Of a DNA stretch of 64,000 nt, positions 15,328 through 43,735 are shown piece after piece. The notes under the pieces were generated by a model that made no database searches, was not told the DNA's origin, and saw only the letters and a list, made by a program, of their open reading frames with translations. Positions within the stretch are counted from its first letter, which is position 1, and each line of letters starts with the position of its first letter. Source of the stretch: Escherichia coli (GTDB taxonomy: Bacteria > Pseudomonadota > Gammaproteobacteria > Enterobacterales > Enterobacteriaceae); assembly GCF_044324785.1 (NCBI RefSeq), contig NZ_CP172127.1; one strand, given 5' to 3'. Made by a program: the position numbers and the translations under genes.

Positions 15328-15403
15328 GCCCGGATAGCTCAGTCGGTAGAGCAGGGGATTGAAAATCCCCGTGTCCTTGGTTCGATTCCGAGTCCGGGCA
15401 CCA
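15328..15403 (+). tRNA. pheU: tRNA-Phe (GAA anticodon)
   Basis: exact 76-nt match to the E. coli tRNA-Phe sequence GCCCGGATAGCTCAGTCGGTAGAGCAGGGGATTGAAAATCCCC...GGGCACCA; K-12 position next to yjdC. Confidence 0.97.
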
Positions 15404-15579
15404 CTTTCACTTCCAGATTCATCTCCCGAACTCCACGAAACTCAAGTATAATCACATCGTTACAAGCAATCTGAACATCCTGAACTCCACCGAACTCTAC
15501 TGAACTCTCTCTCAATCAAGCGTTCATTGGGGGCACCGGTGGGGGCTCATTGTGTTCAGTCAGTTTCAGGAGCCCCCAT

Positions 15580-16764
15580 ATGGCACTTACAGCCAGACAG
15601 GTCGAAACAGCCAGACCTAAAGAAAAAGACTATAAACTCTCTGACGAACGTGGTTTATATCTGCTGGTAAAAACCACGGGTGCCCGCTACTGGCGGCTTA
15701 AATACCGGATAGCAGGAAAAGAGAAAAAACTGGCCCTCGGCGTCTATCCCGACGTCTCCCTTGCTGAAGCCAGAATCAAACGCGACGATGCCCGAAAAAT
15801 TATCTCCGAAGGTGGCGACCCGGGCGAAAAGAAGCGAAAGGAAAAACTCACTCAGAAAATCTCTGCCACCAATACGTTCCATGCCCTTGCTACGGAATGG
15901 CATCAGCATAAATCTTTGTCATGGTCTGAAAGTTACGCCAGAAGCGTACTGGAGGCTCTGGATAAAGATATTTTCCCGTATCTGGGCAAACGAAGCGTTA
16001 CTGATATCCTCCCGCTGGAAATGCTGGAAATTCTGCGCCGCATAGAAAAACGTGGCTCGCTGGAAAAACTTCGTAAGGTGCGTCAATACTGTAATCAGAT
16101 TTTTCGTTATGCCATCGCCACCGGACGAGCCACTGTCAATCCGGCATCTGAACTGACCAGTACGCTGGCGGCGCCAAAAGCTGCACATTTCCCCCACCTG
16201 AGAGCAGATGAGCTCCCTGTTTTTCTCCGGAAGCTCGCTGAATATCATGGCAGTCCTGTTACCCGCATGGCGACAAATCTGCTGCTTCTGACAGGCCTCA
16301 GAACGATTGAACTACGGTCCGCTGAATGGTCAGAAATTGATTTTGATAATGCCCTGTGGACAATCCCTGAAAGCCGCATGAAAATGCGACGTAAACATGT
16401 CGTACCACTGTCACGACAGGCCACTGACATTCTGCTGCAGCTCAAAACTTTCTCCGGACAATACCGGCTGGTTTTCCCGGGACGTTGTGATATCAACAAG
16501 CCAATGAGCGAAGCCAGCATCAATATGGTGCTCAAACGTATCGGTTACGATGGCAGGGCAACCGGTCATGGTTTTCGTCACACCATGAGTACCATTCTGC
16601 ACGAACAGGGCTTTAATTCTGCCTGGATTGAAATGCAGTTAGCTCATGTGGATAAAAATTCCATCAGGGGTACCTATAATCATGCCCTGTATCTCGATGG
16701 TCGCCGTGAAATGATGCAATGGTACGCTGACTACATTGATTCACTTTCCATCCAGGAGAGTTAA
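15580..16764 (+). CDS. P4-type tyrosine integrase of a pheU-inserted genomic island
   Basis: about 394 aa, MALTARQVETARPKEKDYKLSDERGLYLLVKTTGARYWRLKYRIAGKEKKLALGVYP..., with C-terminal catalytic region (HGFRHT...Y); located 177 bp after the tRNA 3' end. Confidence 0.88.
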   Translation: MALTARQVETARPKEKDYKLSDERGLYLLVKTTGARYWRLKYRIAGKEKKLALGVYPDVSLAEARIKRDDARKIISEGGDPGEKKRKEKLTQKISATNTFHALATEWHQHKSLSWSESYARSVLEALDKDIFPYLGKRSVTDILPLEMLEILRRIEKRGSLEKLRKVRQYCNQIFRYAIATGRATVNPASELTSTLAAPKAAHFPHLRADELPVFLRKLAEYHGSPVTRMATNLLLLTGLRTIELRSAEWSEIDFDNALWTIPESRMKMRRKHVVPLSRQATDILLQLKTFSGQYRLVFPGRCDINKPMSEASINMVLKRIGYDGRATGHGFRHTMSTILHEQGFNSAWIEMQLAHVDKNSIRGTYNHALYLDGRREMMQWYADYIDSLSIQES

Positions 16765-26970: not shown

Positions 26971-27368
26971 AGTTGATTATAGTTATGTCAATTTAAGTTT
27001 ATTATTATGATTTTTTATTTTTGTACTATGAATCTCCTGTATGCTTATATGTGCAGAAAATCTCATTTTATCAAGAAGAATATCAAATTTTCTCCGATAC
27101 TTCTACATACTCCATCATTCATGCTCCTTTTATCCGTGCACCGTAAAACCCCGTCCTTCAGCGGGGGATATAAGGCGCTGTTTTCCACCTAACCAGGTGT
27201 CTGCTGCTATTCAATGTATTGGCGGATGACGGATGCCGCCCGTTGAAGCAGGACCCCTCGTCCTTAGGGCGTGGAGGATGTCAAAATGAAAACTTGTGGT
27301 ATGAATCAATCCATTCATCATCCTTTCGGATCATTGCATTCAGTATAACGCTGGGTAATGACTCCAAC

Positions 27369-27872
27369 TTATTGATAGTGTTTTATGTTCAGATAATGCC
27401 CGATGACTTTGTCATGCAGCTCCACCGATTTTGAGAACGACAGCGACTTCCGTCCCAGCCGTGCCAGGTGCTGCCTCAGATTCAGGTTATGCCGCTCAAT
27501 TCGCTGCGTATATCGCTTGCTGATTACGTGCAGCTTTCCCTTCAGGCGGGATTCATACAGCGGCCAGCCATCCGTCATCCATATCACCACGTCAAAGGGT
27601 GACAGCAGGCTCATAAGACGCCCCAGCGTCGCCATAGTGCGTTCACCGAATACGTGCGCAACAACCGTCTTCCGGAGACTGTCATACGCGTAAAACAGCC
27701 AGCGCTGGCGCGATTTAGCCCCGACATAGCCCCACTGTTCGTCCATTTCCGCGCAGACGATGACGTCACTGCCCGGCTGTATGCGCGAGGTTACCGACTG
27801 CGGCCTGAGTTTTTTAAGTGACGTAAAATCGTGTTGAGGCCAACGCCCATAATGCGTGCACTGGCACGACAT
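27369..27872 (-). CDS. insB: IS1 transposase InsB
   Basis: 167-aa ORF inside IS1. Confidence 0.9.
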
Positions 27873-28066
27873 CCGACGCCATTCATGGCCATATCAATGA
27901 TTTTCTGGTGCGTACCGGGTTGAGAGGCGGTGTAAGTGAACTGTAGTTGCCATGTTTTACGGCAATGAGAGCAGAGATAGCGCTGATGTCCGGCAGTGCT
28001 TTTGCCGTTACGCACCACGCCTTCAGGAGCGGAGCAGGAAGGACATCTGATGGAAATGGAAGCCAC
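27791..28066 (-). CDS. insA: IS1 protein InsA
   Basis: 91-aa [46 protein letters not shown]... with zinc-finger cysteines. Confidence 0.9.
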
Positions 28067-28329
28067 GCAAGCACCTTAAAATCACCATCATACACTAAAT
28101 CAGTAAGTTGGCACCATTACCTGACCAAGCTTCCTCTATTGCGGCACCTGATTGCATCAATATCGAAAGTGATAAGATCCTCTCACTAGCAGGGCATGAC
28201 AAGTGTAACTGCTGATTTGTTAGCCTGTTTTAAGTTTTTTAAGATCAATTATTTCTCATTTTTTGACTTTATTGCTAGCCGTGAAAATGCAAAGCCTATA
28301 GGATACAAAAATTACAATTTGTAGGTTTT

Positions 28330-28836
28330 GTGAGTCATATGAAGGCAACCAATATAGACCCTCAACTGCTTGAAAAAGCCACGAGTATCTTTGCTGAGTT
28401 GGGCTTACCTATTGAGCAGGCTATTAACGTCTTTTTAGCTAAATCCGTTCAAGCCAAAGGTTTTCCGTTTTCTGTTGCTCTTGAAAATGAAGTAGAGACA
28501 CGGGAAGTTGCACAAACGCAACACAATATCAGCAATGCAGAGATAACCGAAGCTATCCAAGACTTGGTTGAACATGCTCTACCACTGAGTGAAATAGAAA
28601 ACCTCACGCAGCTAACCTATTGTCGCAACATTTTTGGGTTGTCATTCCCCGTGCTCAAACTGGCTAAATCATCACGGCCAGAAGACATTCGCAGTGCAGC
28701 CAAAGATGCCAAAGAGCGAAACCGCTACTCCACCACTAAAGTGGCCCAGCGAGATGAAAAAACCTATGTTATTTGCACCCAATGGACCGACAGACATCGT
28801 TCTGCATTTTGCCGTTGGCAAGCCATCTTTAGCTAG
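28330..28836 (+). CDS. RelB/DinJ-like antitoxin-domain protein with C-terminal extension
   Basis: 168-aa ORF; N-terminal 50 aa resemble the DinJ/RelB ribbon-helix-helix (ATSIFAELGLPIEQAINVFLAKSVQAKGFPF); no toxin ORF adjacent. Confidence 0.5.
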   Translation: MSHMKATNIDPQLLEKATSIFAELGLPIEQAINVFLAKSVQAKGFPFSVALENEVETREVAQTQHNISNAEITEAIQDLVEHALPLSEIENLTQLTYCRNIFGLSFPVLKLAKSSRPEDIRSAAKDAKERNRYSTTKVAQRDEKTYVICTQWTDRHRSAFCRWQAIFS

Positions 28837-28902
28837 AACGCAAAATAATAACCAAACAATACACTGATTTTTTAACGATTTAACTTCATTTAGGTAGTAT
28901 CA

Positions 28903-30882
28903 ATGAACTTACAAGACAAAGAACAAAGCGCCAAACTCTCCAGTGCTATTTGGCGTATGGCAGATGATTTATGGGGTGATTTCAAACACACCGATTTTGC
29001 GCGGATTATCCTGCCATTTTTGCTACTGCGTCGTATTGAATGCGTGTTAGAACCCACCCGTGAGGAAGTTCGTAAGTTCTATCTGGCCGAAAAACAATCC
29101 GGCATAGACCTTGGTTTAGTGTTGCCAGAAATTGCGGGATTCGCCTTTTACAACACCAGTGAATATAGCCTAGAAACCTTAGGCGCGTCAGACACCGGCG
29201 ACAACCTAGAACACTACATCAGCCAGTTCAGCAAAAACGTTCGTACCATCTTTGATGAGTTTAAATTTGGTCAAACCATAGAAGATCTGGAAAAAGCCAA
29301 GTTGCTGTATCGCATGGTAAACCATTTTGCCAACCTCGACTTGCATCCTGATGTAGTGTCTGACCGCGTATTATCAGATGCTTATGAAGAGCTGATTCTA
29401 AAGTTCGCCAGTTCGGTTAATGAAAAGGCCGGGGAATTTATGACCCCGCGTGATGCCGTGCGTCTTGCCACCAAACTGGTGCTGGCGGCGGATGAAGATA
29501 TCTTTAGTGAAAAGGGTGTGATCCGCACCATCTATGACCCAACCTGTGGCACGGGCGGTTTCCTTTCCGATGCCATTAGCCAAATTGAAGAAATGGGCAG
29601 CAGCGCTAAAGTCGTGCCTTTTGGTCAAGAGCTCGACCCCGCGACCCATGCCATGGCGCTGACCAATATGATGATCCGCGGTTTTGATGCCAATAACATC
29701 AAGCAAGGCAACACCTTATCAGACGATCAGTTACGTGCCGACAAGTTTCACTACGGCCTTGCCAACCCGCCATTTGGCATTAAGTGGGAAAAAGCCAAGA
29801 AAGAAGTAGAACGTGAGCACAAACAGCTCAAATACGCCGGACGCTTTGGGCCAGGCCTGCCGAGTATTTCTGATGGTTCAATGCTGTTTTTACTGCACTT
29901 GGTATCAAAAATGGAAACGCCGGAAAATGGTGGTGGCCGAGTGGGTATAGTCCTTTCTGGCTCGCCACTGTTTAATGGCGATGCAGGCTCAGGCCCATCA
30001 GAAATCCGCCGTTGGCTGCTAGAACAAGACTTAGTCGAAGCGATTGTTGCCCTGCCAACCGATATGTTCTTCAACACCGGCATTGGCACCTACATCTGGA
30101 TTTTGACTAACCATAAAGAGCCAAGACGCAAGAATCAGGTGCAACTGATTAACTTGGCAGATATTTGGACTCCCATGCGTAAATCGCAAGGCGATAAGCG
30201 CAAGTACCTGAGTGATGAACAGATTGACGATATTGTCCGTGCGTACGATGGCTTTGAAGCCAGTGACAACTGTAAGATCTTCCAGACTACTGATTTTGCC
30301 TACCGTAAAGTCACCATTCAGCGTCCACTGCGTGCCAAACTAGATATTACCGCTGCGGGCATTGCTGCATTTGTGCAGCAAGATACGTTTAAAAAACTCA
30401 AACCAGAGCAACAAGCGGCATGGGTACAATACCTCACCGATAACCTTGGCCTTCAGCCTTATGAATGGGCACGTTTGGCGGTTAAGAAGAATAACAATAA
30501 GGGTGACTTTGGTAAGTGCTCAAAAGCACTGGCTACGGCCTTAACTGCGCACTTTGTAAAAATTGATCCGCAATTTGAGCCTGCACTGGATGAAAAAGGC
30601 CAAGTGATCGCCGACCCTAAACTCAAAGACACCGAAAGCATTCCTTTTGACCGCGACGTTGAAGATTACTTCGCACAAGAGGTGCTGCCACATGTACCGG
30701 ATGCCTTTATTGATCACTCAGTGCGTGATGAAAAAGACGGCGAAGTGGGCATTGTCGGTTATGAAATTAACTTTAACCGCTATTTCTACCAATACGTGCC
30801 ACCACGCGAGTTGAGTGTGATTGATCGTGAGCTAAAAGCATGTGAAGCGCGCATTCAGGCTCTGCTGAATGAGGTGGCGTAA
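28903..30882 (+). CDS. hsdM: type I restriction-modification system, DNA methyltransferase subunit
   Basis: 659-aa ORF with AdoMet motif DPTCGTGGFL and catalytic NPPFG; TAATG overlap with hsdS. Confidence 0.9.
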   Translation: MNLQDKEQSAKLSSAIWRMADDLWGDFKHTDFARIILPFLLLRRIECVLEPTREEVRKFYLAEKQSGIDLGLVLPEIAGFAFYNTSEYSLETLGASDTGDNLEHYISQFSKNVRTIFDEFKFGQTIEDLEKAKLLYRMVNHFANLDLHPDVVSDRVLSDAYEELILKFASSVNEKAGEFMTPRDAVRLATKLVLAADEDIFSEKGVIRTIYDPTCGTGGFLSDAISQIEEMGSSAKVVPFGQELDPATHAMALTNMMIRGFDANNIKQGNTLSDDQLRADKFHYGLANPPFGIKWEKAKKEVEREHKQLKYAGRFGPGLPSISDGSMLFLLHLVSKMETPENGGGRVGIVLSGSPLFNGDAGSGPSEIRRWLLEQDLVEAIVALPTDMFFNTGIGTYIWILTNHKEPRRKNQVQLINLADIWTPMRKSQGDKRKYLSDEQIDDIVRAYDGFEASDNCKIFQTTDFAYRKVTIQRPLRAKLDITAAGIAAFVQQDTFKKLKPEQQAAWVQYLTDNLGLQPYEWARLAVKKNNNKGDFGKCSKALATALTAHFVKIDPQFEPALDEKGQVIADPKLKDTESIPFDRDVEDYFAQEVLPHVPDAFIDHSVRDEKDGEVGIVGYEINFNRYFYQYVPPRELSVIDRELKACEARIQALLNEVA

Positions 30883-32168
30883 TGAATGCTGGCAACATAG
30901 TAGATGCTTTCGTATCTGACTCGAAATGGAACTCAGTACCAGCTAAACGTTTATTTACGAGTAGCAAAGAAATCAATCAAGGAATGAAAGAATCTAATCG
31001 TCTTGCACTAACAATGAAAGGTGTCATAAACCGCTCGTTAGACGATTTACAAGGACTTCAATCTTCTGATTACTCTGTTTATCAGATTTTTGAAAAAGAT
31101 GACTTAGTTTTTAAGCTCATAGATCTTGAAAATATAAAGACTAGCCGAGTGGGGATTGTGCATGAACGAGGAATAATGAGCCCTGCATACATCCGTGTTT
31201 CAGCGAGTTCAAATAGCATCTACCCAAGGTTCTATTACTGGTACTTTTTTGCTCTATACCTAACCAATATTTATAACAAACTGGGTGGAGGAGTTCGTCA
31301 GAACCTAACAGCTGGTGATCTTTTAGAAATACCTGTTCCACTGATTGATATTTCATTACAGAAGCAGGTTAGCACATTCCTTGATCGCGAAACCCAGCGC
31401 ATCGACAGTCTGATCGAGGAAAAGCAGACCTTTATTAAGCTGCTCAAAGAAAAACGCCAAGCACTGATCAGCCATGTGGTCACAAAGGGGCTCTATCCCA
31501 ATGTGGAGATGCAGGACTCTGGCATCGAGTGGATTGGGCAAGTGCCGAAGCATTGGGAAGTCAAAAAGATAAAGCATATTTGCTCCAACTTTATGTATGG
31601 AACCTCTCAAGACTGTAACCAGTCTGATGTTGGCTATCCTGTTCTCAGGATACCAAACATCAAGAGTACCAATGTTGATTTTGAAGATCTCAAATATGCA
31701 AATATCAGTGATGTTGATGCTTTAACTTATCTTTTATCAAGAGGCGACATTTTAGTCATCAGAACTAACGGTAACCCTAATCTGGTCGGCCAAAGCGCGC
31801 TTTTTGATTCAAATGGGCAGTATTTATTTGCGTCGTACCTAATAAAGTTAACACCAAAGCAAGGAGTGGATACTAGCTTCTTAGTGGAAGCGATGAACTC
31901 ACTATCTGTTCGTCAAGCATTAACATTTCAGTCAAGAACATCGGTAGGTAACTACAACCTGAGCATTCCTTCACTAGCTAATACAAGTATTGCTATCCCA
32001 CCAATTGATGAGCAAAAGACAATAACGAATTACTTGAGTGCAGCAACGATAAACATTGATTTACTGATTCAAGAGACTGATAAATCGATTGATCTTCTAA
32101 AAGAACACCGCACATCGCTGATCAACGCGGCTGTCACAGGAAAAATAGACGTCAGGGAGGCGGTGTAA
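30882..32168 (+). CDS. hsdS: type I restriction-modification system, specificity subunit
   Basis: 428-aa ORF with two-TRD architecture and conserved central and C-terminal repeats (SLIEEKQTFIKLLKEKRQALISHVVTKG / LLKEHRTSLINAAVTGKIDV). Confidence 0.88.
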   Translation: MNAGNIVDAFVSDSKWNSVPAKRLFTSSKEINQGMKESNRLALTMKGVINRSLDDLQGLQSSDYSVYQIFEKDDLVFKLIDLENIKTSRVGIVHERGIMSPAYIRVSASSNSIYPRFYYWYFFALYLTNIYNKLGGGVRQNLTAGDLLEIPVPLIDISLQKQVSTFLDRETQRIDSLIEEKQTFIKLLKEKRQALISHVVTKGLYPNVEMQDSGIEWIGQVPKHWEVKKIKHICSNFMYGTSQDCNQSDVGYPVLRIPNIKSTNVDFEDLKYANISDVDALTYLLSRGDILVIRTNGNPNLVGQSALFDSNGQYLFASYLIKLTPKQGVDTSFLVEAMNSLSVRQALTFQSRTSVGNYNLSIPSLANTSIAIPPIDEQKTITNYLSAATINIDLLIQETDKSIDLLKEHRTSLINAAVTGKIDVREAV

Positions 32169-35100
32169 TGGCTGCACATCATGAAGTGCATTTTGAACAA
32201 TATATTACCGAGCAGTTGGTGAACAATGGCTGGAAAGAAGGCCATTCCTGCCACTATGACCAGCAACGCGCCCTTTACCCGCAAGATGTCATGGATTGGG
32301 TAAAGGCCACCCAGCCAGATGCCTGGCACAAACTGAATAAACTGCATGGTGTGAATGCCGAGCAGGTGCTGTTGGAGCGTTTGGAAAAAGCCCTCTCTTC
32401 CCACAAAGCTGGCAGTAAAACAGGTGGCACCATTAATGTGCTGCGTAAAGGCTTTACCATTGCAGGTTGCGGCACGATTGCCATGGGCCAACGCAAACCC
32501 GAAGATGCGCGCAATGAAGAGCGTATAGCCCGTTATGAGCACAACATTTTGCGCGTGGTGCGCCAACTGAAATATTGCCCGACTCGCGAGTGGGAAATTG
32601 ACTTGGTGTTCTTTATCAACGGTCTACCCGTTGCCACCGCCGAGCTAAAAACCGATTTTACCCAGTCGCTAGAATCGGCGATTGCGCAGTACAAAGAGGA
32701 TCGTCTGCCCGTTGACCCAAAAACCAAGCGTAAAGAGCCGCTGTTAACCTTTAAACGCGGTGCAGTGGTACATTTTGCCATGTCTGATACAGAAATCGCC
32801 ATGGCGACCAAACTGGCGGGAGAAAATACCTATTTTCTGCCCTTCAATAAAGGCCATGATGGTTCTACCTCTGATTTGCCCGTACACATCAACTTGCCGG
32901 GTGAAGATGGAGAGTATCCGGTCAGCTATTTTTGGCAAGAAATTGCCCAAAAAGATAATTGGCTACGCATTTTCTACAGCTTTGTGTATGTCGAAACCAA
33001 AGAGGTTGCCGATAGCAATGGCAAGGTTGAGCGTAAGGAAACACAGATTTTTCCGCGTTATCATCAGTTAGCCGCAGTCAACAAGATGATTGATGATGCC
33101 CGCCAGAACGGCGCAGGCATGCAGTATCTTTGTGAGCACAGCGCCGGTTCGGGAAAAACCTCTACCATAGCCTGGACGGCCCATGATTTGATTCGTTTAC
33201 GCAGCACCGATGGTAAAGCGGTCTTTAAATCAGTGATCATTGTGACCGACCGCACCGTGCTGGATTCGCAGTTGCAAGATGCGGTGCAACAGCTGGATCA
33301 TCAATATGGGGTGATTAAGGTGATTGATCGCGAAAAGAGCAGCGAGTCGAAATCAAAACAGCTGACTGAAGCGCTATTGACTGGCACGCCGATCATTGTA
33401 GTGACGATTCAAACCTTCCCATATGCGTTAGAAGCGATTCTGACCAATCAATCTTTGGCACAAAGTAACTTTGCGGTGATCATCGATGAAGCACACACCT
33501 CGCAAACAGGCTCTACAGCCAAAGGGTTACGCGCAGCGCTTACTCTAAACCTTAGCCCTCAAGAGTTGGAGCAAATGAGCATTGAGGACATTCTTACTAA
33601 GGTGCAAGAAGCGCGCGCCATGCCCAAGAACGTTTCGCACTTTGCTTTTACGGCAACACCCAAGCACAGCACCAAGATGTTGTTTGGCCGCCCGAAAGAC
33701 CCTAACCAACCAGTGTCAGATGACAATCTTCCTGAATCGTTCCACCTCTACACCCAACGTCAGGCCATTGATGAGGGTTTTATTCTTGATGTGCTGGAGA
33801 ATTACACCCACTACGATACAGCCTACAAAATTGGTGAGAACAATCTGGATGAGAAGCGCGTAGACAGCAAACAAGCTCGCCGCGCGTTGGCGCGCTGGAT
33901 GTCACTGCACCCAACCACGGTCAGCCAAAAAGTCGAATTTATTATTAAGCACTTCAAGGCCAATATCGCTCACCTACTGGAAGGTGAAGCCAAAGCCATG
34001 GTGGTCACATCGGGCAGGCCACAGGCGGTGAAATACAAGCTTGCTTTTGATAAATACATTAAAAAGCATGGTATTGAAGGTATCCAAGCCTTGGTTGCCT
34101 TCTCGGGCAAAGTCCCCGGCAAAGATTTGGGTGATGAAGACAGCCAAGACCCGCTAGAAATTGATTTCGATAAAGAGTACACCGAGTACAACTTAAACCC
34201 AGACACGCACGGGGCTGACCTGCGCCATGAGTTTGAGAAAACCGAATATCGCGTCATGTTAGTCGCCAACAAGTTCCAAACGGGCTTTAATCAACCAAAA
34301 CTGGTTGCCATGTATTTGGATAAGAAAATATCCGATGTAGAAGCGGTGCAAACGCTGTCTCGCCTAAACCGCACCTATCCAGGCAAAGACACAACCTTCG
34401 TGATTGATTTTGTTAACGATCCACAAACCATTCTCAATGCGTTCAAAAAGTACGACAAAGGCGCGCAGCTTAATGAAGTGCAAGATGTGAACGTCATCTA
34501 TGACATCAAAGATATTTTGGATGAACAGAACATATACAACCATCAAGATTTAGAGTTGTTTAAGCAAGCGCGTGGTAAATCGATTCTCGGCCAATCACCT
34601 GACAAAAAGTCACACGCGCACAAGAAACTGCTAGCTGCCACACAACGCCCTACCGATGTGTTCAACGTTAAGCTCAAAGAGCTGGTTGATGCTGCAAACC
34701 ATTGGGATCAGCAATACAACAAAGCGCACCTTGCGGGTGATGAAAAAGCGGCGAACTACGCAGAATCTCAGCGCAGTGATTTCACCAAGCAGCGCGAAGC
34801 ACTAATGCGTTTTAAGTCAGATTTAGCTCGATTTGTGAAGCACTATAGCTATATGGCGCAATTGATTGAGTTTGGTGATCCTGAACTGGAAAACTTTGCC
34901 GCGTTTGCTCATTTGCTATCACGTCGATTGAAAGGGGTAACACCAGAAAACATCGATCTCAGTGCACTGGTACTAGAAAAATTCAAAATCAAATACGACA
35001 AAGAGCCGCTTCCAGAAGCGTTTAATCAGGTACTTGAACCTATCCGCCCCAACTATAACGACCCTGCGGATCGTGAACAGGCATTTCTTGCCGATATCAT

Positions 35101-35404
35101 TCGCCGCCTAAACGAACTGTTTGGCGATGTCGGCGACGAACCCGGTCGCCGAAACTTTGCCAACGGTACTATTACGCGTGTCACCCAAAATCCAATTGTG
35201 GTTGAGCAGATAGAAAAGCACGACAAGTCGATTGCCCTCAAAGGCGACTTGCCGCAAGCGGTGAAGCAAGCCGTTGTGCAGGCTCTGCTGAAAGAAGGTG
35301 ATATAGCCCGAACGCTACTCAAAGACCCACAAGTTATGGCAAGTTATGTTGAGTTGATTTTTGACATGATGAAGCAAGGTGCAGAACAGGCGGCGGTGAA
35401 ATAA
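32168..35404 (+). CDS. hsdR: type I restriction-modification system, restriction endonuclease/helicase subunit
   Basis: 1078-aa ORF with Walker A (SAGSGKT), DEAH-like VIIDEAH and helicase motifs; TAATG overlaps on both sides. Confidence 0.9.
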   Translation: MAAHHEVHFEQYITEQLVNNGWKEGHSCHYDQQRALYPQDVMDWVKATQPDAWHKLNKLHGVNAEQVLLERLEKALSSHKAGSKTGGTINVLRKGFTIAGCGTIAMGQRKPEDARNEERIARYEHNILRVVRQLKYCPTREWEIDLVFFINGLPVATAELKTDFTQSLESAIAQYKEDRLPVDPKTKRKEPLLTFKRGAVVHFAMSDTEIAMATKLAGENTYFLPFNKGHDGSTSDLPVHINLPGEDGEYPVSYFWQEIAQKDNWLRIFYSFVYVETKEVADSNGKVERKETQIFPRYHQLAAVNKMIDDARQNGAGMQYLCEHSAGSGKTSTIAWTAHDLIRLRSTDGKAVFKSVIIVTDRTVLDSQLQDAVQQLDHQYGVIKVIDREKSSESKSKQLTEALLTGTPIIVVTIQTFPYALEAILTNQSLAQSNFAVIIDEAHTSQTGSTAKGLRAALTLNLSPQELEQMSIEDILTKVQEARAMPKNVSHFAFTATPKHSTKMLFGRPKDPNQPVSDDNLPESFHLYTQRQAIDEGFILDVLENYTHYDTAYKIGENNLDEKRVDSKQARRALARWMSLHPTTVSQKVEFIIKHFKANIAHLLEGEAKAMVVTSGRPQAVKYKLAFDKYIKKHGIEGIQALVAFSGKVPGKDLGDEDSQDPLEIDFDKEYTEYNLNPDTHGADLRHEFEKTEYRVMLVANKFQTGFNQPKLVAMYLDKKISDVEAVQTLSRLNRTYPGKDTTFVIDFVNDPQTILNAFKKYDKGAQLNEVQDVNVIYDIKDILDEQNIYNHQDLELFKQARGKSILGQSPDKKSHAHKKLLAATQRPTDVFNVKLKELVDAANHWDQQYNKAHLAGDEKAANYAESQRSDFTKQREALMRFKSDLARFVKHYSYMAQLIEFGDPELENFAAFAHLLSRRLKGVTPENIDLSALVLEKFKIKYDKEPLPEAFNQVLEPIRPNYNDPADREQAFLADIIRRLNELFGDVGDEPGRRNFANGTITRVTQNPIVVEQIEKHDKSIALKGDLPQAVKQAVVQALLKEGDIARTLLKDPQVMASYVELIFDMMKQGAEQAAVK

Positions 35405-35958
35405 TGAATACTGCGTTTCGGGTTTTACTTACGTTCAATGCAACATCACTACTAGTGATTATCTTTGCGGTACAAAAAGGGTACTCACTCGGATATTTCT
35501 TTGGTGGTTTCGCTTGCTTCGATTGGATAGCAGCACTTCCGAACGCAGTATCATATTTACTCTATTTTCTTATCCCTGTTTTATCGACTGGATTGAGTAT
35601 TTGGCTGAGTAAGTATTTGGGTAAAGACGATTTTAAGGCGGGTGAAGTAGCGAGTATTGAGCATGCCAATAACAGCTTCCTACCAAGTTATTTGGGTTAC
35701 TTTTTCGTGGCGTTGAGCATTGGTAACTGGGAGACATTGTGGTTTGTTTATGGCGTTTTGTTTGTTTTTACTCTCTTATCGCAAGCACTCTACTTTAACC
35801 CATTGTTTTTACTGTTTGGTTATGAGTTTTATAACATTACAACCAAAAACGGAACGGCCATTTTCCTTATTAGCCGAGAGCGCTACAAGAAGCCAGATGA
35901 CATCGAAATATCATTGGCTTATCGAATCAATAATTACACATTTATCGAGCGAGGATAA
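35404..35958 (+). CDS. uncharacterised predicted membrane protein (about 4 TM), candidate defence-system component
   Basis: 184-aa ORF with four hydrophobic segments; start codon overlaps the hsdR stop (TAATG) and its own stop overlaps the next gene. Confidence 0.6.
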   Translation: MNTAFRVLLTFNATSLLVIIFAVQKGYSLGYFFGGFACFDWIAALPNAVSYLLYFLIPVLSTGLSIWLSKYLGKDDFKAGEVASIEHANNSFLPSYLGYFFVALSIGNWETLWFVYGVLFVFTLLSQALYFNPLFLLFGYEFYNITTKNGTAIFLISRERYKKPDDIEISLAYRINNYTFIERG

Positions 35959-36800
35959 TGATGGACCATGTACTGGCACATATAAAAACTAGAGCAAAAA
36001 AACGCATTTTCAAATTGGTTTCTGATCAATCTCTTTTTGATACCGTCACAATCGACTTAAATGCCTGTATTCCATACAATCCAGACCATAACCTTGACGA
36101 AGACTCATGGTTTAAAATTGAAGACTTTAGTCAAAAAGAGTTTTGTATTGAACTGCTAAAAAAAGACTATGATTCAAAAGACTACGATGACTTAACCAAA
36201 GATAACTTCGCCAAGATCGCCTACTTATTTGCAATTCAAGGTAATGATTTTTACTTTCAAAAAATCACTCCAAGCCTATTCGTAAAACGCAAAACGCTTG
36301 TTTTTGGTGAAGCCGCAGAAATTGAGAAGAGCCAAACACGTTTAGTAATAAACGCCTTACCTGATGCAGTGTACTTCAAAGTGGCCGATACCTTGATATT
36401 CAAAAATCTGGCAACGATCTCGAGCATTTTTAAAGGTATCGATGAGTTGTACAAGGAAGCAACAAAAGAAGAAGTTGAGCAGTTTTTAGATGCACAGTTT
36501 ATAGAGTTGGGTAATGACTACAACGTAGATAGCGTCTCAAAACCTAATAGAAAACGTATTGGCCTTGCTATGGCAACACTTGATGCGATGTCTGCTGACG
36601 ATAAAGCTAACATGCTTGATTATATCGACGGTTACTGCGGTGAACAGAAGCTGAAATTCGATAAAGAAAATCAGAAGTTTGAAATATCTAATGACGATGA
36701 GTTGAAGTTACTGCTTTATGGCATTGAACAACGCTTCTATACGACCCCGTTTGGCAAAGAAAAAAGGCTCGCTAACTCTGTAACCGCTATGGATAAATAA
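35958..36800 (+). CDS. uncharacterised 280-aa soluble protein, candidate defence-system component
   Basis: translationally coupled to the upstream membrane-protein gene (TAATG); AT-rich; no motif recognised by eye. Confidence 0.6.
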   Translation: MMDHVLAHIKTRAKKRIFKLVSDQSLFDTVTIDLNACIPYNPDHNLDEDSWFKIEDFSQKEFCIELLKKDYDSKDYDDLTKDNFAKIAYLFAIQGNDFYFQKITPSLFVKRKTLVFGEAAEIEKSQTRLVINALPDAVYFKVADTLIFKNLATISSIFKGIDELYKEATKEEVEQFLDAQFIELGNDYNVDSVSKPNRKRIGLAMATLDAMSADDKANMLDYIDGYCGEQKLKFDKENQKFEISNDDELKLLLYGIEQRFYTTPFGKEKRLANSVTAMDK

Positions 36801-36820
36801 TAGCCCATTATCAGTAACAT

Positions 36821-37870
36821 ATGAAGGTTGATTCAATGGCCGATAACATCCCACAAGCTCCTCAAGGTGAGTTTGTTCTTTTCACCAGTGCTGATGGTCA
36901 AACCCGCGTTGAGTGTCGTTTTGAGTCTGACACCTTGTGGCTTTCTCAGGCTGCAATGGCAGAGCTTTATCAAGTTAGCTCTCAAGCAATCACCCAACAC
37001 GTAAAAGCTGTCTATTCTGAAGAAGAGCTTGAGCAAATTTCAACTTGTAAGGATTACTTACAAGTTCAACTGGAAGGTGGCAGAGAAGTAAAGCGAAGCA
37101 TTCGTCACTACAGTCTTCCGGTTATTCTTGCAGTAGGATACCGAGTTCGCTCAACACGTGGCACCCAGTTCCGCCAATGGGCAACCAGAATGTTGCAAGA
37201 ATACCTAATCAAAGGATTCGTCATGGATGACGAGCGCCTGAAAAATCCGCCCATTGGCCATTCTGCTGTGCCAGATTACTTTGATGAAATGCTGGAACGC
37301 ATTCGTGATATCCGAGCTAGTGAGCGTCGCGTTTATCTGCGAGTCAAAGAAATCTTTACCATGGCTGCTGATTACGAGCCATCTAACCAAGAGACCAACC
37401 GCTTCTTCCAAACCATTCAGAATAAGCTGCATTATGCTTGTACGCATATGACGGCTGCTGAGCTTATCGCCAGCCGTGTGGATGCCAGTAAGCCGGATAT
37501 GGGCTTAACCAGCTATAAAGGCGATGAAGTGCGCAAGACAGACGTTACTGTTGCCAAGAACTATTTGCGTGAAGACGAAATCAAAGAGCTTAATCGCATC
37601 GTCAATATGTGGCTCGACTTTGCTGAAGACCAAGCACTGCGTCGCAAGCAGGTATTTTTACAGGACTGGGCCGATAAGCTTGACCAGTTCTTGAGTTTTA
37701 ACGATAGAGATGTATTAAACGGTGCAGGAAAAATCTCCAAGAAAGACGCTGATGACAAAGCGAAATTGGAGTTTGACCGCTTTGCCCAGCAGCGCCGTCG
37801 TTTAAAAGAAGCCGAAGGCGCACGGGCCAATATCGCAGCCCTCAAGGCCATACTAAAAAAAGATAAATAG
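36821..37870 (+). CDS. RhuM-family virulence/defence-island protein
   Basis: 349-aa ORF; N-terminal region (FTSADGQTRVECRFESDTLWLSQAAMAELYQVSSQAITQHVKAVY...VAYRVRSTRGTQFRQWATRMLQEYLIKGF) is typical of the RhuM family. Confidence 0.7.
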   Translation: MKVDSMADNIPQAPQGEFVLFTSADGQTRVECRFESDTLWLSQAAMAELYQVSSQAITQHVKAVYSEEELEQISTCKDYLQVQLEGGREVKRSIRHYSLPVILAVGYRVRSTRGTQFRQWATRMLQEYLIKGFVMDDERLKNPPIGHSAVPDYFDEMLERIRDIRASERRVYLRVKEIFTMAADYEPSNQETNRFFQTIQNKLHYACTHMTAAELIASRVDASKPDMGLTSYKGDEVRKTDVTVAKNYLREDEIKELNRIVNMWLDFAEDQALRRKQVFLQDWADKLDQFLSFNDRDVLNGAGKISKKDADDKAKLEFDRFAQQRRRLKEAEGARANIAALKAILKKDK

Positions 37871-37927
37871 CCGATATAGTACAGCCCTGATCTCTAATGA
37901 GTTGAGGGCTGTGTTGTAAGATCATAA

Positions 37928-38314
37928 CTATAAAGGATTATCCATCTTAAAATCGTCGATATCGCCTGTCATTTTGAATAGATTGGTGTCATTCCAACGG
38001 CACAGTTGTCTAACCCGCATTAGATTTGAGTTGGCTCTGCGGATTATTGAGAAAGCATCTTCAACAGCAGTAATCACCGATTTTTCCCAATCTTGTGCTC
38101 GGGTAAAGGTGCTTTGTGAATAGCGATAATTGCCCTCACGGGGGAGGTAATGGCTGATCACCTGGTATTTGTCAGAATTCTTTTTAGGTTTAAACTCGTT
38201 GTAAACCCAGAAAATTTCGAGTTTTTTGTTTCTTTGCCTTACACGACAACCAAAATGACCTGGGTAGCCTTCAGAGTTTTTACCTCTATGTGCAACGTTG
38301 TTCAGCCAGAACAA
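37928..38314 (-). CDS. hypothetical protein (start uncertain)
   Basis: 128-aa AT-rich ORF between the RhuM gene and an IS3-family element. Confidence 0.35.
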   Translation of the reverse strand: MFWLNNVAHRGKNSEGYPGHFGCRVRQRNKKLEIFWVYNEFKPKKNSDKYQVISHYLPREGNYRYSQSTFTRAQDWEKSVITAVEDAFSIIRRANSNLMRVRQLCRWNDTNLFKMTGDIDDFKMDNPL

Positions 38315-38403
38315 GTCTGCAATTTTTTGTGCTATGTAGAAGTAGCGGAGCTGTTCTATTTCGGTTGATTTATGGGTGTAGTGTAGATATTGCTCTGATA
38401 TGG

Positions 38404-38604
38404 TTAAGGAAAAAGCATTGCGTCGTCTTGATTAACATTTGTGCTATTGACAATAAAGGTTTCCCAAATATTAATTTGTGTTTCTAGTCCTTTAAATGAT
38501 TTTGAGAAGGCTTCTATGTACTCAGATTGCGGTTGATTTCCCCCATTTAGTGCTGCACCAAATGTAGCTATCTGTTGTTCTAAAAATGAATGATTTTTGG
38601 TCAT
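38404..38604 (-). CDS. hypothetical small protein
   Basis: 67-aa ORF from MTKNHSFLEQQ...; the longer ORF-track version runs into the IS terminal repeat. Confidence 0.3.
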   Translation of the reverse strand: MTKNHSFLEQQIATFGAALNGGNQPQSEYIEAFSKSFKGLETQINIWETFIVNSTNVNQDDAMLFP

Positions 38605-38682
38605 TACATAATCCTCTGTGTGGTTGATACTGCGTATTTTCATGAAAGGAGATCACTCAATAACCCCCCTGTGTCAGCATAG

Positions 38683-39225
38683 TTGTCGCCTCAATTTTTT
38701 AAGGAGATAACAATGCCAGGACAACCAATACCAAATGAGCTCAAAGAAAAAGGACTGATATGGCTTTTGCCACCATACTGTTGGTCACACCGTCAGATAG
38801 CCCGGAAGCTGAAGATCAGTGCCTCAGTTGTATCAAAATGGAGATGTGAGTTAGTGGAGCAAGGACTTTTACCTGAAAATGAAAAGATTACCTCCGTTGA
38901 TGTTGAAGACTGGACACCGGAGCGTCGATTCTCAGTTGTTCTTGAGACGGCTACGCTGTCAGAAATGGAACTTGCTGATTATTGCCGACGCATGGGATTG
39001 TTTGTTGAACAGGTTAAAGAATGGCGGGCTATCTCAATTCAGGCGCATGAAAAGAAATTGACGGAAAATATCCGAACAGACAGGGCATTGCGTGACGCAA
39101 AAAATAAGTTACGAGAACTGGAGAAAGAGCTTAAGCGCAAAGATAAAGCTCTGGCGGAAGCAGCTGCCCTGCTTATATTAAGGGAAAAGTTCAATGCCCT
39201 CTGGGACAACAGCGAGGAAGACTGA
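38683..39225 (+). CDS. IS3-family transposase OrfA (HTH, leucine-zipper-like C-terminus)
   Basis: 180-aa ORF with HTH and coiled-coil (LRELEKELKRKDKALAEAAALLILREKF). Confidence 0.7.
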   Translation: MSPQFFKEITMPGQPIPNELKEKGLIWLLPPYCWSHRQIARKLKISASVVSKWRCELVEQGLLPENEKITSVDVEDWTPERRFSVVLETATLSEMELADYCRRMGLFVEQVKEWRAISIQAHEKKLTENIRTDRALRDAKNKLRELEKELKRKDKALAEAAALLILREKFNALWDNSEED

Positions 39226-40252
39226 CCCCTCTCCTGGAGCGGCATAAAATTATTTCTCTTGTCCGTGAGGCCGTCGCCAACGGCGCCCGGAAAGGTCAGG
39301 CTTGTAGGTGTATCGGTATTTCTATTCGGACACTTCAGCGCTGGACTAATGGCAACATCATCACCACGGACCGAAGATCCGATACTGTAAACAGCTCTCC
39401 CCGAAATAAGCTGTCAGAAGCGGAAAGATTGCGAATACTGGAGTTGTGCAACTCTCCAGAGTTTGCATCCTTGCCTCCAAATGTGATCGTACCAACTCTG
39501 GCAGACAGAGGTATTTATATTGCTTCTGAATCAAGTTTTTATCGTGTACTGAAATCAGCCAAGCAGTTGAAGAAACGATCCCGTGAATGCCAGTATAAAC
39601 TGGCCTGATGTACTCAGGGCCGTTGCACCGAATCAAGTCTGGAGTTGGGACATCAGCTATTTGCCGTCCTGGGTCAGAGGCCAGCATTTTTACCTCTATA
39701 TGATCGTCGATATTTACAGTCGCAAAATTATTGCTGCTGAGGTATTTGCCAGCGAATCTGGAAAACATGCAGCAGAACTACTCCAGCGTGCAGTATGGAA
39801 TGAAAAATGTTCATCCAACAATCTGGTACTCCATTCTGATAACGGTGGTCCCATGCGCAGTGACACGTTGTTGGCGAAAATGTATGCGCTTGGTGTGCTA
39901 AGTTCTTATTCCCGGCCAAGAGTCAGTAATGATAATCCTTACTCAGAATCTTTGTTCCGGACTCTCAAATATTGTCCCTGGTGGCCTGAGAACGGTTTTC
40001 GCACTATTGATGATGCCAGAGTATGGGTAAACCAGTTTTGTAAACTGGTACAACTTTGAACATAAGCACAGCGGGATCAAATACGTCACGCCAGCCGAGC
40101 GTCATCAAGGTAATGATATGAAAATACTGGCGGCCAGAAAAGCAGTATACCAGCTGGCACGCGAACAGCATCCTGAACGTTGGGGAAAGCATCTACGTAA
40201 CTGGGACTACATATCAGAAGTCTACCTGAATCCAGAAAAAGAGGCTGCATAA
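39226..40252 (+). pseudogene. IS3-family transposase OrfB (DDE integrase core), at least two frameshifts
   Basis: pieces in three frames: ...RTLQRWTNG.../...PNQVWSWDISYLPSW...HSDNGGPM...YSRPRVSNDNPYSESLFRTLK.../...NFEHKHSGIKYVTPAERHQ... Confidence 0.75.
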
Positions 40253-40328
40253 CGTAATTTTATTACAAAAGGCGACAACTACCTTGAAAAACGCCGTTAT
40301 TGAGTGATCTCCTTTCATGAAAATACGC

Positions 40329-40870
40329 ACCATGACCATACCCTCTGCAACCTGACCATCGTAGTCACGCAGCGTCAGTGAACCTCCGAACAACTGTTTT
40401 ACCCGGTACATCGCTGTTTCCGCTATCGAACGACGGTTATAATCTGTTGTCCATTTACACCGGGCATTACTTCCGGTCAGCCGCTGATTAGCCACTGCAC
40501 GGTTACGGTCTTCGTATTCACCGGGCTAGTAACCCGCACCTTTTCGGGAAGGGGTAAGCGCGCTGATTTTCTTACGCCTCAGTTCATCGTGACAGAGTCG
40601 GGGGTCGTAAGCCCCGTCTACCGCTGCAGCCATGATTTTTCTGTGAGTCTGTTGGAGAAGCCCCGGGAAGGCTTCTGAGTCCGTGACGTTGTTCAGCGAC
40701 AGGTCTGCACAGACAATTTCATGTGTGTTGCCATCAACAGACAGATGCGACGCCCCTCTTTGCCGTGCTTTTTGGCTTTCCTTTCGCCTTCCCCAAAGAC
40801 TTTTAGCCCGTTGGAATCAATCACGAGGTGTATGATTTCACCCCGGGTGGGGATTTATGTATAAGAAACA
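40329..40870 (-). pseudogene. IS5-family (IS903-like) transposase fragment, truncated by the IS3-family element
   Basis: minus-strand translation contains ...NRAVANQRLTGSNARCKWTTDYNRRSIAETAMYRVKQLFGGSLTLRDYDGQVAEGMVM and upstream frameshifted pieces; ends exactly at the IS3-family element boundary. Confidence 0.6.
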
Positions 40871-40959
40871 GCGTATTCGTGAGGGGTGAGCCATGAATAA
40901 AATCCCTTTTGAAGTATTAATCCACTCTGAAAATGCATTAATCTGCGCAAAGGAAATGG

Positions 40960-41305
40960 ACGCGTTATTAATTAAGTTAATTGATATTCCGGAAAGTGGC
41001 GATAAAACATATTCGATGACGGACAGGCGACAATGTGGTTATCTGTGCTGGCGTTTGGCAGACAGGCCGAAGCACTGGCCAGACACCAGAAAGGCGAACT
41101 GGTAAGCGTGGCAGGTAACATGCAGGTCAGCCAGTGGACAGGGCAGAACGGGAAAACGCGGCAGGGACGGCAGGTTATCGCAGACAGCGTAATCAATACT
41201 CAAACGGTGCGGCCAGGAGGAAGCAGACGCGAAACCACAGGTACACAGGGTAATCAGCCACCAACGGGAGGCGACGCCACTTACGGAGATGATATACCCT
41301 TATGA
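40960..41305 (+). pseudogene. single-stranded DNA-binding protein (plasmid/island-type ssb) remnant, frameshifted
   Basis: SSB-like C-terminal part ...AFGRQAEALARHQKGELVSVAGNMQVSQWTGQNGKTRQGRQVIADSVINTQ... ending in acidic tail GDDIPL; N-terminal part out of frame. Confidence 0.55.
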
Positions 41306-41322
41306 ATTAAGCGGGGCGCAAC

Positions 41323-41643
41323 ATGAACAACAGCACACTGAAGAGCCGGACAATAAGCGACGCGACAGCGGAAGAACTCGAGAGCAGGGGACTGTGGCGA
41401 CGTGCTGCCAGAAGGTGGCAGGATGTGATGATTACTCTTGAGAAAGACAGTCACAGACAGCTTGCAGTAATGAGAGCAAGGGAATGTATCAGGAAGGCAA
41501 AACGCCCGATACCTGAAAGCCGTATTGATATTCATACAGTCAGAAAGGCCGCAGACAGGACAATACAAAAAATGGGGCTACCGTCGCTTACTGATGAAAT
41601 ATGGCGCGATTACCCTGATAGCGTTAACGATGACGGTTATTAA
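41323..41643 (+). CDS. small island-encoded regulator-like protein (possibly PerC family)
   Basis: 106-aa ORF with motif ELESRGLWRRAARRWQDVM; family assignment is from memory only. Confidence 0.35.
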   Translation: MNNSTLKSRTISDATAEELESRGLWRRAARRWQDVMITLEKDSHRQLAVMRARECIRKAKRPIPESRIDIHTVRKAADRTIQKMGLPSLTDEIWRDYPDSVNDDGY

Positions 41644-42184: not shown

Positions 42185-42440
42185 TAAAAACAGAGAAAAC
42201 CCGTCGGAACCGATTTTCACCAGAGTAAAAATGGAGACTTGTTCAGCAAACTCTTTTACCCGGAGCCTGTGTGGCCCAGATTGCACGAGAGTCTGGCATC
42301 AATGATAATGTTATTTTCAAATGGCTCAGACTCTGGCAAAACGAAGGGCGTGTTTCGCGGCGTCTTCCGGTAACAACCACTTCTGACGCAGGCGTTGAAT
42401 TATTACCTATGGAGATAACGCCGGATGAGCAGAAAGATCC
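42185..42440 (+). pseudogene. IS3-family transposase OrfA remnant (frameshifted, 3' deleted)
   Basis: pieces ...KTRRNRFSPE... and VAQIARESGINDNVIFKWLRLWQNEGR resemble IS3-family OrfA HTH regions; followed by unrelated sequence. Confidence 0.45.
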
Positions 42441-42978
42441 GATGATTCCCCTACCGCCAGCTTTTCGCCTGCGCCGGTATACGTTTCTTTATCTTTGCCC
42501 TGCATCACCCACAGGCTGGCTCCGCCGATAATGGCGTTTTGTGGTGCATCTTTCGCGTCAGCGTCGTAAGGCATCATGCCTACGCCGTAGTTGAATTTGG
42601 CGTACTCGCGAATGTTGGCAAGAGAACCGGAAGAGGCGGTGGTCATCGCGCAATCACCTCTATAGAACTTCTCGGTGGATTCATCCTTACGCCCGACGTA
42701 GATGAAGTCGCCCTTCTTGTTCATCTCCTCGAGCATGACGATGTGTTTCACCTGCTCCGGCTTGTTGAACTCCAGCACCGCGTCCGTGGCGTCAAAACCG
42801 TTGTTTTTGCTGGCAAACGGCAGACCGTTCCTGGCGCTAAAGTTTTCCAGTTGTATCCACCTCTTTGCCCATTTCCCCTTCCATAGAGTTCCAAAACGGA
42901 ATGGTCGTCACTGCCTGTGCATTGCCCATTAACGCCAGTCCGAGCACCAGTGATGAAGCTGTATAATGTAACGGTTTC
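42440..42978 (-). pseudogene. ugpB-like glycerol-3-phosphate ABC transporter substrate-binding protein remnant
   Basis: minus strand encodes [42 protein letters not shown] then frameshift joined to ...[49 protein letters not shown]...[18 protein letters not shown]; central part deleted and C-terminus truncated. Confidence 0.7.
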
Positions 42979-43735
42979 ATCGTTTATCTCTCTTGCTTGT
43001 TGTACCTGATGTGCAAATTCACTCGTTTTATGCTCGCGGGATTACATATCATGCCCGAATTGCAGAAAAATAACTTTTTATTACATGTGTAAGACAGTAA
43101 AACCTCAGAAAGATGACAGTGTGGTGCCGGCGCGGGTGAGGAAAAATGGAAGATGGGGAATGTATAAGCGGGAAAATAGGAGGGCCTGTGGATTGTAGAT
43201 AATGTGCTCATCGTTTTCATGCCGGATGAGACATAAACACTTTTATCTGAGCATTTCTATGTATTCGGACAGTTGTTCTTGGCATCCAATGGTGCAGGTT
43301 CTGTAGTGTGTGGTGGTAGCAATAGCCTCAGCTTCATTACAATATTTATTATCTCAAACATTCAAATGTCCTTGGCCCACTTTGATAGTCACTTTGTCGT
43401 GGTTATTATGTCTTTCCTTTTCCTAAAGCCCCATTATCTGTGCTGCAGCTTTCCCTCCATCAACGAACCAACAACCAGCAATGCCTGTCCCCCATAACAG
43501 CCCGGAAAATGGCACATTCTCAGATGATTTATCCCGCGAGCTATCCCGCCTACAGCTAATCGACCTGTTTAATACATCTTGACAGTCTGCTGGCAAGGTT
43601 ACCCTTCCCAATATTGTCCGTTTTTAACATATCTAATACGAGCCCCCATCAAATATGCTTCGTGTTCACTGTAAGTGACTAAAAGTGCTGTCTGCCCTGC
43701 CTCATGCAAAATATCACGAACTTCACGGCTCAGTC

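Follow-up and report, generated by a model that had tools for sequence, protein, structure and literature searches.

Two small minus-strand ORFs, of 67 and 128 aa, adjoin each other next to a rhuM gene in a defense-rich island of Escherichia coli, and the question they raise is whether they form a functional gene pair or are the debris of a larger gene. The original prediction placed them at 38404..38604 and 37928..38314 of the window (the whole 64-kb stretch of DNA that was analyzed), and both are present there. They are AT-rich as had been stated, with a GC content of 38.7% for 37928..38604 versus 49.9% for the window, and they do lie between a RhuM gene, recognized by its Pfam match (E 1e-113), and an IS element, recognized by IS3-family inverted repeats and domains. 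The further statement that they have no recognizable motifs was mistaken. The 128-aa ORF matches the Pfam family MobI (PF19456) with 97.1 bits (curated cut-off 26.6, E 9.3e-28; positions 12-116 of the 116 in the profile are covered), and RefSeq calls it mobI. Since the profile is matched only from position 12 onward, the ORF seems to lack its N-terminus. MobI is an already known and already annotated family, which occurs here as a split pseudogene. We put the probability at about 0.92 that the locus is one frameshifted mobI gene, cut off from its promoter and oriT by an IS element and left as a non-functional remnant of a mobilizable island.

Table 1. Positions of the mobI fragments and of the elements that surround them, numbered as in the window.
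Feature	Position	Strand	Remarks
IS1 copy, left boundary of fossil	27354..28121	-	768 bp, IS1-type ends
Fossil of a trmE-type MGIVchHai6-like island	28122..38630		RelB/DinJ-like gene, hsdM, hsdS, hsdR, kwaA, kwaB, rhuM, mobI pseudogene
KwaA candidate	35404-35958	+	PADLOC KwaA, E 9e-16; RefSeq 'hypothetical protein'; directly 3′ of hsdR
KwaB candidate	35958-36800	+	PADLOC KwaB, E 7e-14; RefSeq 'hypothetical protein'
rhuM	36821..37870		Pfam Virulence_RhuM, E 1e-113
Inverted repeat between convergent rhuM and mobI	37881..37912		ACAGCCCT (16 nt) AGGGCTGT; read from the sequence
mobI pseudogene, whole	37928..38604	-	677 nt; 678 nt (225 codons and stop) with the missing T restored
3′ mobI fragment	37928..38401	-	-1 frame; MobI residues ~68-225; has the Pfam MobI domain
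5′ mobI fragment (the 67-aa ORF)	38404..38604	-	MobI residues 1-65 and one altered residue, then TAA
Frameshift site	38410..38414	-	T5 run, T6 in intact relatives; from DNA alignment
Remaining mobI leader	38605..38630	-	last 26 nt; sole remnant of the ~530-bp upstream intergenic region of relatives
IS3-family element	38631..40329	+	1699 bp; degenerate transposase; HTH_Tnp_1 and rve domains

The two ORFs as parts of mobI

Comparison with intact relatives indicates a single inactivated mobI gene, of which the 67-aa and the 128-aa ORF are one half each. What had been described as a two-gene cassette is a single ORF in every intact relative, where the DNA equivalent to both window ORFs is read as one, and 37928..38604 also comes out as one gene when its DNA is aligned with the intact loci L003 and L007. 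Conservation of the pair in other genomes, proposed earlier as a check, was not found: relatives have one ORF, and the split occurs in E. coli copies with five Ts at the lesion. The conceptual protein of 225 aa obtained by fusing the halves aligns at 100% coverage and 86-92% identity with MobI proteins encoded by single ORFs. These include proteins of 225 aa (P0009, 92% identity; P0013, 86%) and of 249 aa (P0010, 91%; P0011 from Vibrio cholerae, which is named MobI(A/C), 87%). When the 67-aa ORF alone was compared with 5.8 billion proteins, the matches were itself and near-identical E. coli fragments only; by shared words, full-length relatives were reached with the fused 225-aa query and not with the 67-aa ORF. 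In E. coli 1585m1 (L002) a single mobI of 194 aa is present, its N-terminus corresponding to the last 30 residues of the 67-aa ORF; in the alignment to this gene a 1-nt gap separates the two window frames.

The lesion itself is a shortened homopolymer. The T6 run of intact relatives reads CTTTTTTCC and the T5 run of the window reads CTTTTTCC. The window and the E. coli loci L001, L004, L005 and L006 read GCAATGCTTTTTCCTTAACC (T5), versus GCAATGCTTTTTTCCTTAACC (T6) in L007, L008 and L009, and over 45 nt this is the sole difference between the window and the latter three. In longer reads across the site, the intact loci L007, L008 and L009 have GCAATGCTTTTTTCCTTAACCATATCAGAGCAA, and the window and the four other E. 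coli loci have GCAATGCTTTTTCCTTAACCATATCAGAGCAA. Loss of one T at 38410-38414 shifts the frame and thereby brings the TAA at 38404-38406 into frame. An uninterrupted coding sequence of ~190-225 aa, as in island-borne MobI, is consequently absent from the window. The original prediction had also considered that the ORFs might be a remnant truncated by the IS insertion, or fragments of a larger gene disrupted by it. They are indeed a remnant linked to an IS and two halves of a larger gene, mobI, but the split is due to the 1-nt deletion in the T6 run; the coding sequence is not truncated by the IS, which sits 26 nt upstream.

The T5 state was surveyed with a 71-nt query centered on the T run. 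It was found in 71 of the 71 complete E. coli genomes that have this region, including SMS-3-5, and all were at least 99% identical to the query; one inserted or deleted base would have lowered the identity to 98.6%, so T5 is genuine and fixed. An intact T6 run, or a copy without the IS junction, occurred in 0 of these 71 complete genomes. Two records (H65 and H67) have no 'hypothetical protein' annotation, yet the split gene is present in both. The mobI DNA of the window is 100% identical to that of many complete E. coli genomes. Only one disabling mutation is present in the mobI coding sequence and the remaining frame is clean, which points to recent decay.

The two fragments differ in their translation signals. 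The 67-aa ORF starts at ATG 38604, with AGAGGA 8-13 nt upstream. Its mechanical ORF reaches further, to ATG 38643, which is irrelevant as a start since it lies inside the IS3-family element. The 128-aa ORF, with a TTG start, sits inside the 3′ fragment, which has no credible start of its own: sequence inspection revealed no Shine-Dalgarno sequence before TTG 38314 or before ATA 38401. The start of the 128-aa ORF had been called uncertain, and rightly so, given the missing Shine-Dalgarno sequence at TTG 38314 and the alternation of PGAP with ATA 38401. A promoter and RBS inspection, which had been suggested as a check on the pair, yielded no promoter-like site from the IS end to the ATG, no RBS for the 128-aa ORF, and the AGAGGA before the 67-aa ATG.

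The annotation of this sequence is uneven. In RefSeq, DNA identical to the window is called 'conjugative transfer protein MobI(A/C)' with an adjoining 'hypothetical protein'. On identical sequences the PGAP start calls for the 3′ fragment differ, giving 157 aa from ATA 38401 in SMS-3-5 (WP_226091811.1) versus 128 aa from TTG 38314 in strain 219 (WP_001342709.1), and PGAP never flags this fragment as a pseudogene. A correct annotation would merge the 'hypothetical protein' of 67 aa (WP_012311738.1) with the 'MobI(A/C)' entries of 128/157 aa into one pseudogene.

Structure prediction, which had also been proposed, was run on the repaired protein. The AlphaFold2 model, based on a 12-sequence alignment, has a mean pLDDT of 64.9, with a moderately confident core at residues 80-200 (pLDDT ~70-89) and low confidence for the N-terminal 78 residues. 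In the model the core folds as a helix, a three-stranded sheet and a long helix. Translation from TTG 38314 would give a product that cuts the predicted helix 81-106, the first of the core. A Foldseek comparison of the model with the PDB returned nothing with E < 0.06, and nothing about the mechanism could be learned from the fold. MobI forms of 225 aa are longer at the N-terminus, by ~31 residues, than the forms of 194-198 aa (residues 1-66 of the repaired protein in alignment A2). At the N-terminus of the repaired protein SFLEQQIATFGAAL is similar to FKGLETQINIWETF right after it, perhaps the trace of a duplication of the N-terminal helix within the protein.

The upstream region and the surrounding island

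In intact relatives an intergenic region of ~530 bp precedes mobI. It holds two palindromic GCCC(A/T)5GGG(C) boxes and several repeats. In the window ~500 bp of this region is replaced by the IS3-family element, which begins 26 nt before the mobI ATG. When the intergenic regions of L003 and L002 were compared with the window by blastn-short, the remaining leader matched positions 506-531 of L003 only, in agreement with alignment A3, and no other part of the window contains the rest of the region. In L003 and L002, the palindromic boxes GCCCAAAAAGGGC and GCCCTTTTTGGG lie in the stretch that is replaced in the window. Judging from the published description, these boxes may be AcaCD binding sites (PMC7449626). 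The window has neither AcaCD-responsive promoters before mobI or xis nor an oriT directly upstream of mobI, and a promoter scan between the IS end and the mobI ATG detected no sigma-70-like promoter. In MGIVchHai6, mapping located a minimal oriT of 49 bp upstream of mobIM, together with an AcaCD-responsive promoter (PMC7449626). For L003 and L002, the putative oriT equivalent is assigned to the intergenic region from its position and not by alignment with the mapped 49-bp oriT.

The IS3-family element has perfect inverted repeats of 34 nt at its ends (38631-38664 and 40296-40329). A target-site duplication is absent from these ends (flanks ATAC versus CCAT) and the right flank is an IS5-family remnant, which together indicate that the junction is a rearrangement and not a simple insertion. 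The same junction at mobI is present in 71/71 E. coli genomes. The transposase frames of the element are broken, with ORFs of 180 aa and 158 aa and gaps between them, and RefSeq describes them as 'frameshifted; internal stop'. Its family is very common, as a 60-90-nt end of the element matches ~1700-1840 of 5426 E. coli genomes. On the other side of mobI, the inverted repeat that separates it from the convergent rhuM is kept in L002 and L003. It is a possible bidirectional terminator; a terminator scan flagged only a weak site neighboring 37881..37912.

The IS1 copy and the IS3-family element enclose a block of 10.5 kb, at the right end of which lie the mobI ORFs. The block includes a type I restriction-modification (RM) system, with hsdM, hsdS and hsdR at 28903-35404 and 99.2% identity to the trmE island of 1585m1. 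The two genes that follow hsdR are probably an unannotated Kiwa anti-phage pair on the basis of their profile matches; NCBIfam KwaA scores only 25 bits with the window gene, versus a cut-off of 100. The rhuM gene also matches PADLOC PDC-S05. In L003, L007-L009 and L002 the order is HTH_17, DUF927, HTH_17, intergenic region, mobI (+) and then defense cargo, with the HTH_17-DUF927-HTH_17 cluster divergent from mobI on the far side of the intergenic region. An int gene is visible in L003 and L002, and in L002 mnmE (trmE) abuts the whole island. The backbone int-xis-86-85-ig-mobI is present in L002, L003 and L007-L009 and missing from the window: int, xis (HTH_17), the DUF927 gene and the intergenic region of L003/L002 gave no match in any part of the 64 kb. 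For the att repeat of trmE, TTCTGTATYGGNAARTRA, the window had 0 matches with at most 2 mismatches, and integration at the 3′ end of trmE was not found. The module is located downstream of tRNA-Phe (15328-15403) and an integrase gene (15550-16764).

The 10.5-kb block descends from an IncC-mobilizable trmE island of which the defense cargo (type I RM, Kiwa, RhuM) was kept. The same IS1-to-IS3-family block (27354-40329, with RM, Kiwa, RhuM and the mobI pseudogene) is found in the leuX island of SMS-3-5 (L001) and in the selC/tia island of strain 219 (L004). Since it is present at different tRNA genes, it may have been shuffled between pathogenicity islands by IS elements or by recombination. On a small scale, the block illustrates how a mobilizable island turns into fixed cargo of a larger pathogenicity island after parts needed for mobilization have been lost; beyond annotation, its significance is little.

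Further pieces lie to the right of the block. Directly next to the IS3-family element, at 40330-40640 (-), is a C-terminal remnant of an IS5/IS903-like transposase, and at 40893-41643 (+) there are small ORFs, SSB-like and PerC-like, of a kind usual in P4-like integrative elements; both were identified by eye. At 42407-42980 (-) several short frameshifted ORFs resemble the periplasmic glycerol-3-phosphate-binding protein UgpB of E. coli, and these fragments may be another pseudogene remnant inside the island.

Proposed loss of function and rival readings

MobI recognizes oriT and binds the C-terminal MobI-interacting domain of TraI, the MOBH relaxase of IncC/IncA plasmids; it is needed to start transfer, and MGIVchHai6 owes an oriT specificity of its own to the MobIM that the island encodes (PMC7449626; bioRxiv 10.1101/2025.04.21.649884). 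In the intact state of the window gene, a 225-aa adaptor MobI would be produced from an AcaCD-activated promoter and would recognize the oriT just upstream of its own gene. It would recruit TraI of a co-resident IncC/IncA plasmid, after which the excised island would be moved by the conjugation machinery of the plasmid. Three losses may have ended this. With one T gone from the T6 run at codons 64-65, translation from ATG 38604 would stop after 66 residues, leaving the MobI domain in the -1 frame with neither a start codon nor a ribosome-binding site. Replacement of everything beyond 26 nt before the ATG by the IS3-family element and a rearrangement removed the promoter and the oriT region. 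The third loss is that of the int-xis-DUF927-HTH excision module together with the att sites. The mobI relic thus described appears functionally dead, and it would be kept only through linkage to the defense cargo (type I RM, Kiwa, RhuM).

The rival that survives best is that the gene is split but active. In this case -1 ribosomal or transcriptional slippage on the T5/U5 run would give some full-length MobI, or the fragments would act in trans, for example by titrating, like CtiC of SGI1, the TraI of IncC plasmids that enter the cell. The lesion does lie in a homopolymer, a -1 shift at this place restores exactly the ancestral LFSLTISEQ, and the rest of the mobI frame is intact. For a decoy, it is relevant that the locus is within a defense island, that MobI binds the MIBD domain of TraI, and that the decoy mechanism of CtiC is known (bioRxiv 10.1101/2025.04.21.649884). 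However, residual activity is unlikely because five Ts are few for slippage to be efficient (and CTTTTTC departs from the canonical X XXY YYZ heptamer), because the native promoter is lost with no promoter-like replacement evident, and because T5/T6 variation is absent among the 71 genomes. There is also no oriT in cis. By analogy with CtiC, a broken mobI kept alive by slippage or through its fragments might, having no oriT of its own, act in trans on the MobI-interacting domain of TraI and lower the transfer of incoming IncC/IncA plasmids. If so, it would be an anti-plasmid component of the defense island, but we consider this proposal very unlikely.

A toxin-antitoxin or abortive-infection cassette, as the original prediction had it, would consist of a small upstream antitoxin gene cotranscribed with a gene for a 128-aa toxin. 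Two short adjoining ORFs on the same strand, in a defense-rich island beside type I RM, Kiwa and RhuM, do resemble such a pair. Yet the downstream ORF is a MobI domain that lacks both a ribosome-binding site and a stable start, independent homologs of the 67-aa ORF are absent, and relatives have one ORF at this place, so the pair is not conserved as such. No toxin, antitoxin or defense family was matched in Pfam, NCBIfam or PADLOC; NCBIfam gave no significant match for either fragment and PADLOC none for the repaired protein. With a single ORF in relatives, no family match and no independent downstream start, the cassette was rejected as highly improbable. A sequencing or assembly error in a gene that is really intact has a practically negligible chance: homopolymer indels are common and singleton database variants carry other homopolymer shifts (P0003-P0005), but the identical T5 in 71/71 independent complete genomes, SMS-3-5 among them, rejects it, and even an intact gene would be without promoter and oriT. 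The preferred reading remains that of a frameshifted mobI relic.

Comparison with known MobI systems

The plasmid protein MobI(A/C) (MobIC of IncC/IncA) and the MobI of SXT/R391 ICEs belong to the same Pfam family as the mobI of the window and have a homologous core. The repaired protein is 27% identical to plasmid MobI(A/C) over residues 92-215, and tblastn matches in 1073 plasmid records had 27-31% identity over residues 44/92-215. The plasmid records among the matches listed were mostly annotated mobI. The identity between MobIM and MobIC is also 27% (Rivard 2020, PMC7449626). The MobI proteins of IncC/IncA plasmids are distant from that of the window and do not have its long N-terminal region, and the window copy differs in being a chromosomal pseudogene. 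In IncC/IncA plasmids and SXT/R391 ICEs, oriT is directly upstream of mobI (PMC7449626).

A much closer likeness exists with the mnmE (trmE) island of E. coli 1585m1 (NZ_CP086391.1). Identity is 99.2% over 28141-36840 (8.7 kb with the RelB/DinJ-like gene, hsdMSR and kwaAB) and 83% over rhuM and mobI, with the same order and with rhuM convergent with mobI. The mobI gene of 1585m1 differs in being intact and 194 aa long with a shorter N-terminus, and its DNA is 75% identical to that of the window gene. In the 1585m1 island, which is located at mnmE, the intergenic region, HTH, DUF927, HTH and int are still present, whereas the window does not have these features.

The known system that the block recalls is MGIVchHai6. 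The window mobI differs from it by the frameshift and by the lack of the intergenic region (with the oriT position and AcaCD-like boxes), int, xis and att. The MGIVchHai6-like islands are found at trmE, yicC or dusA, whereas the window copy is in a tRNA-Phe-associated island. The likeness to MobIM rests on family, length, neighbors and cargo and not on sequence identity. The close relatives of the window share with these islands int, xis (HTH_17), '86' (DUF927), '85' (HTH_17), the intergenic region and mobI, and the cargo type of the window fossil, type I RM, is shared as well. MobIM belongs to the same Pfam family, and the repaired window gene has the same length (225 aa, 678 bp); mobIM is 678 bp when read from ATG118 of a 795-bp ORF (Rivard 2020, PMC7449626). 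MobI proteins of 225 aa are also listed for Salmonella, Enterobacter, Vibrio and Shewanella (Table S1 of PMC7449626).
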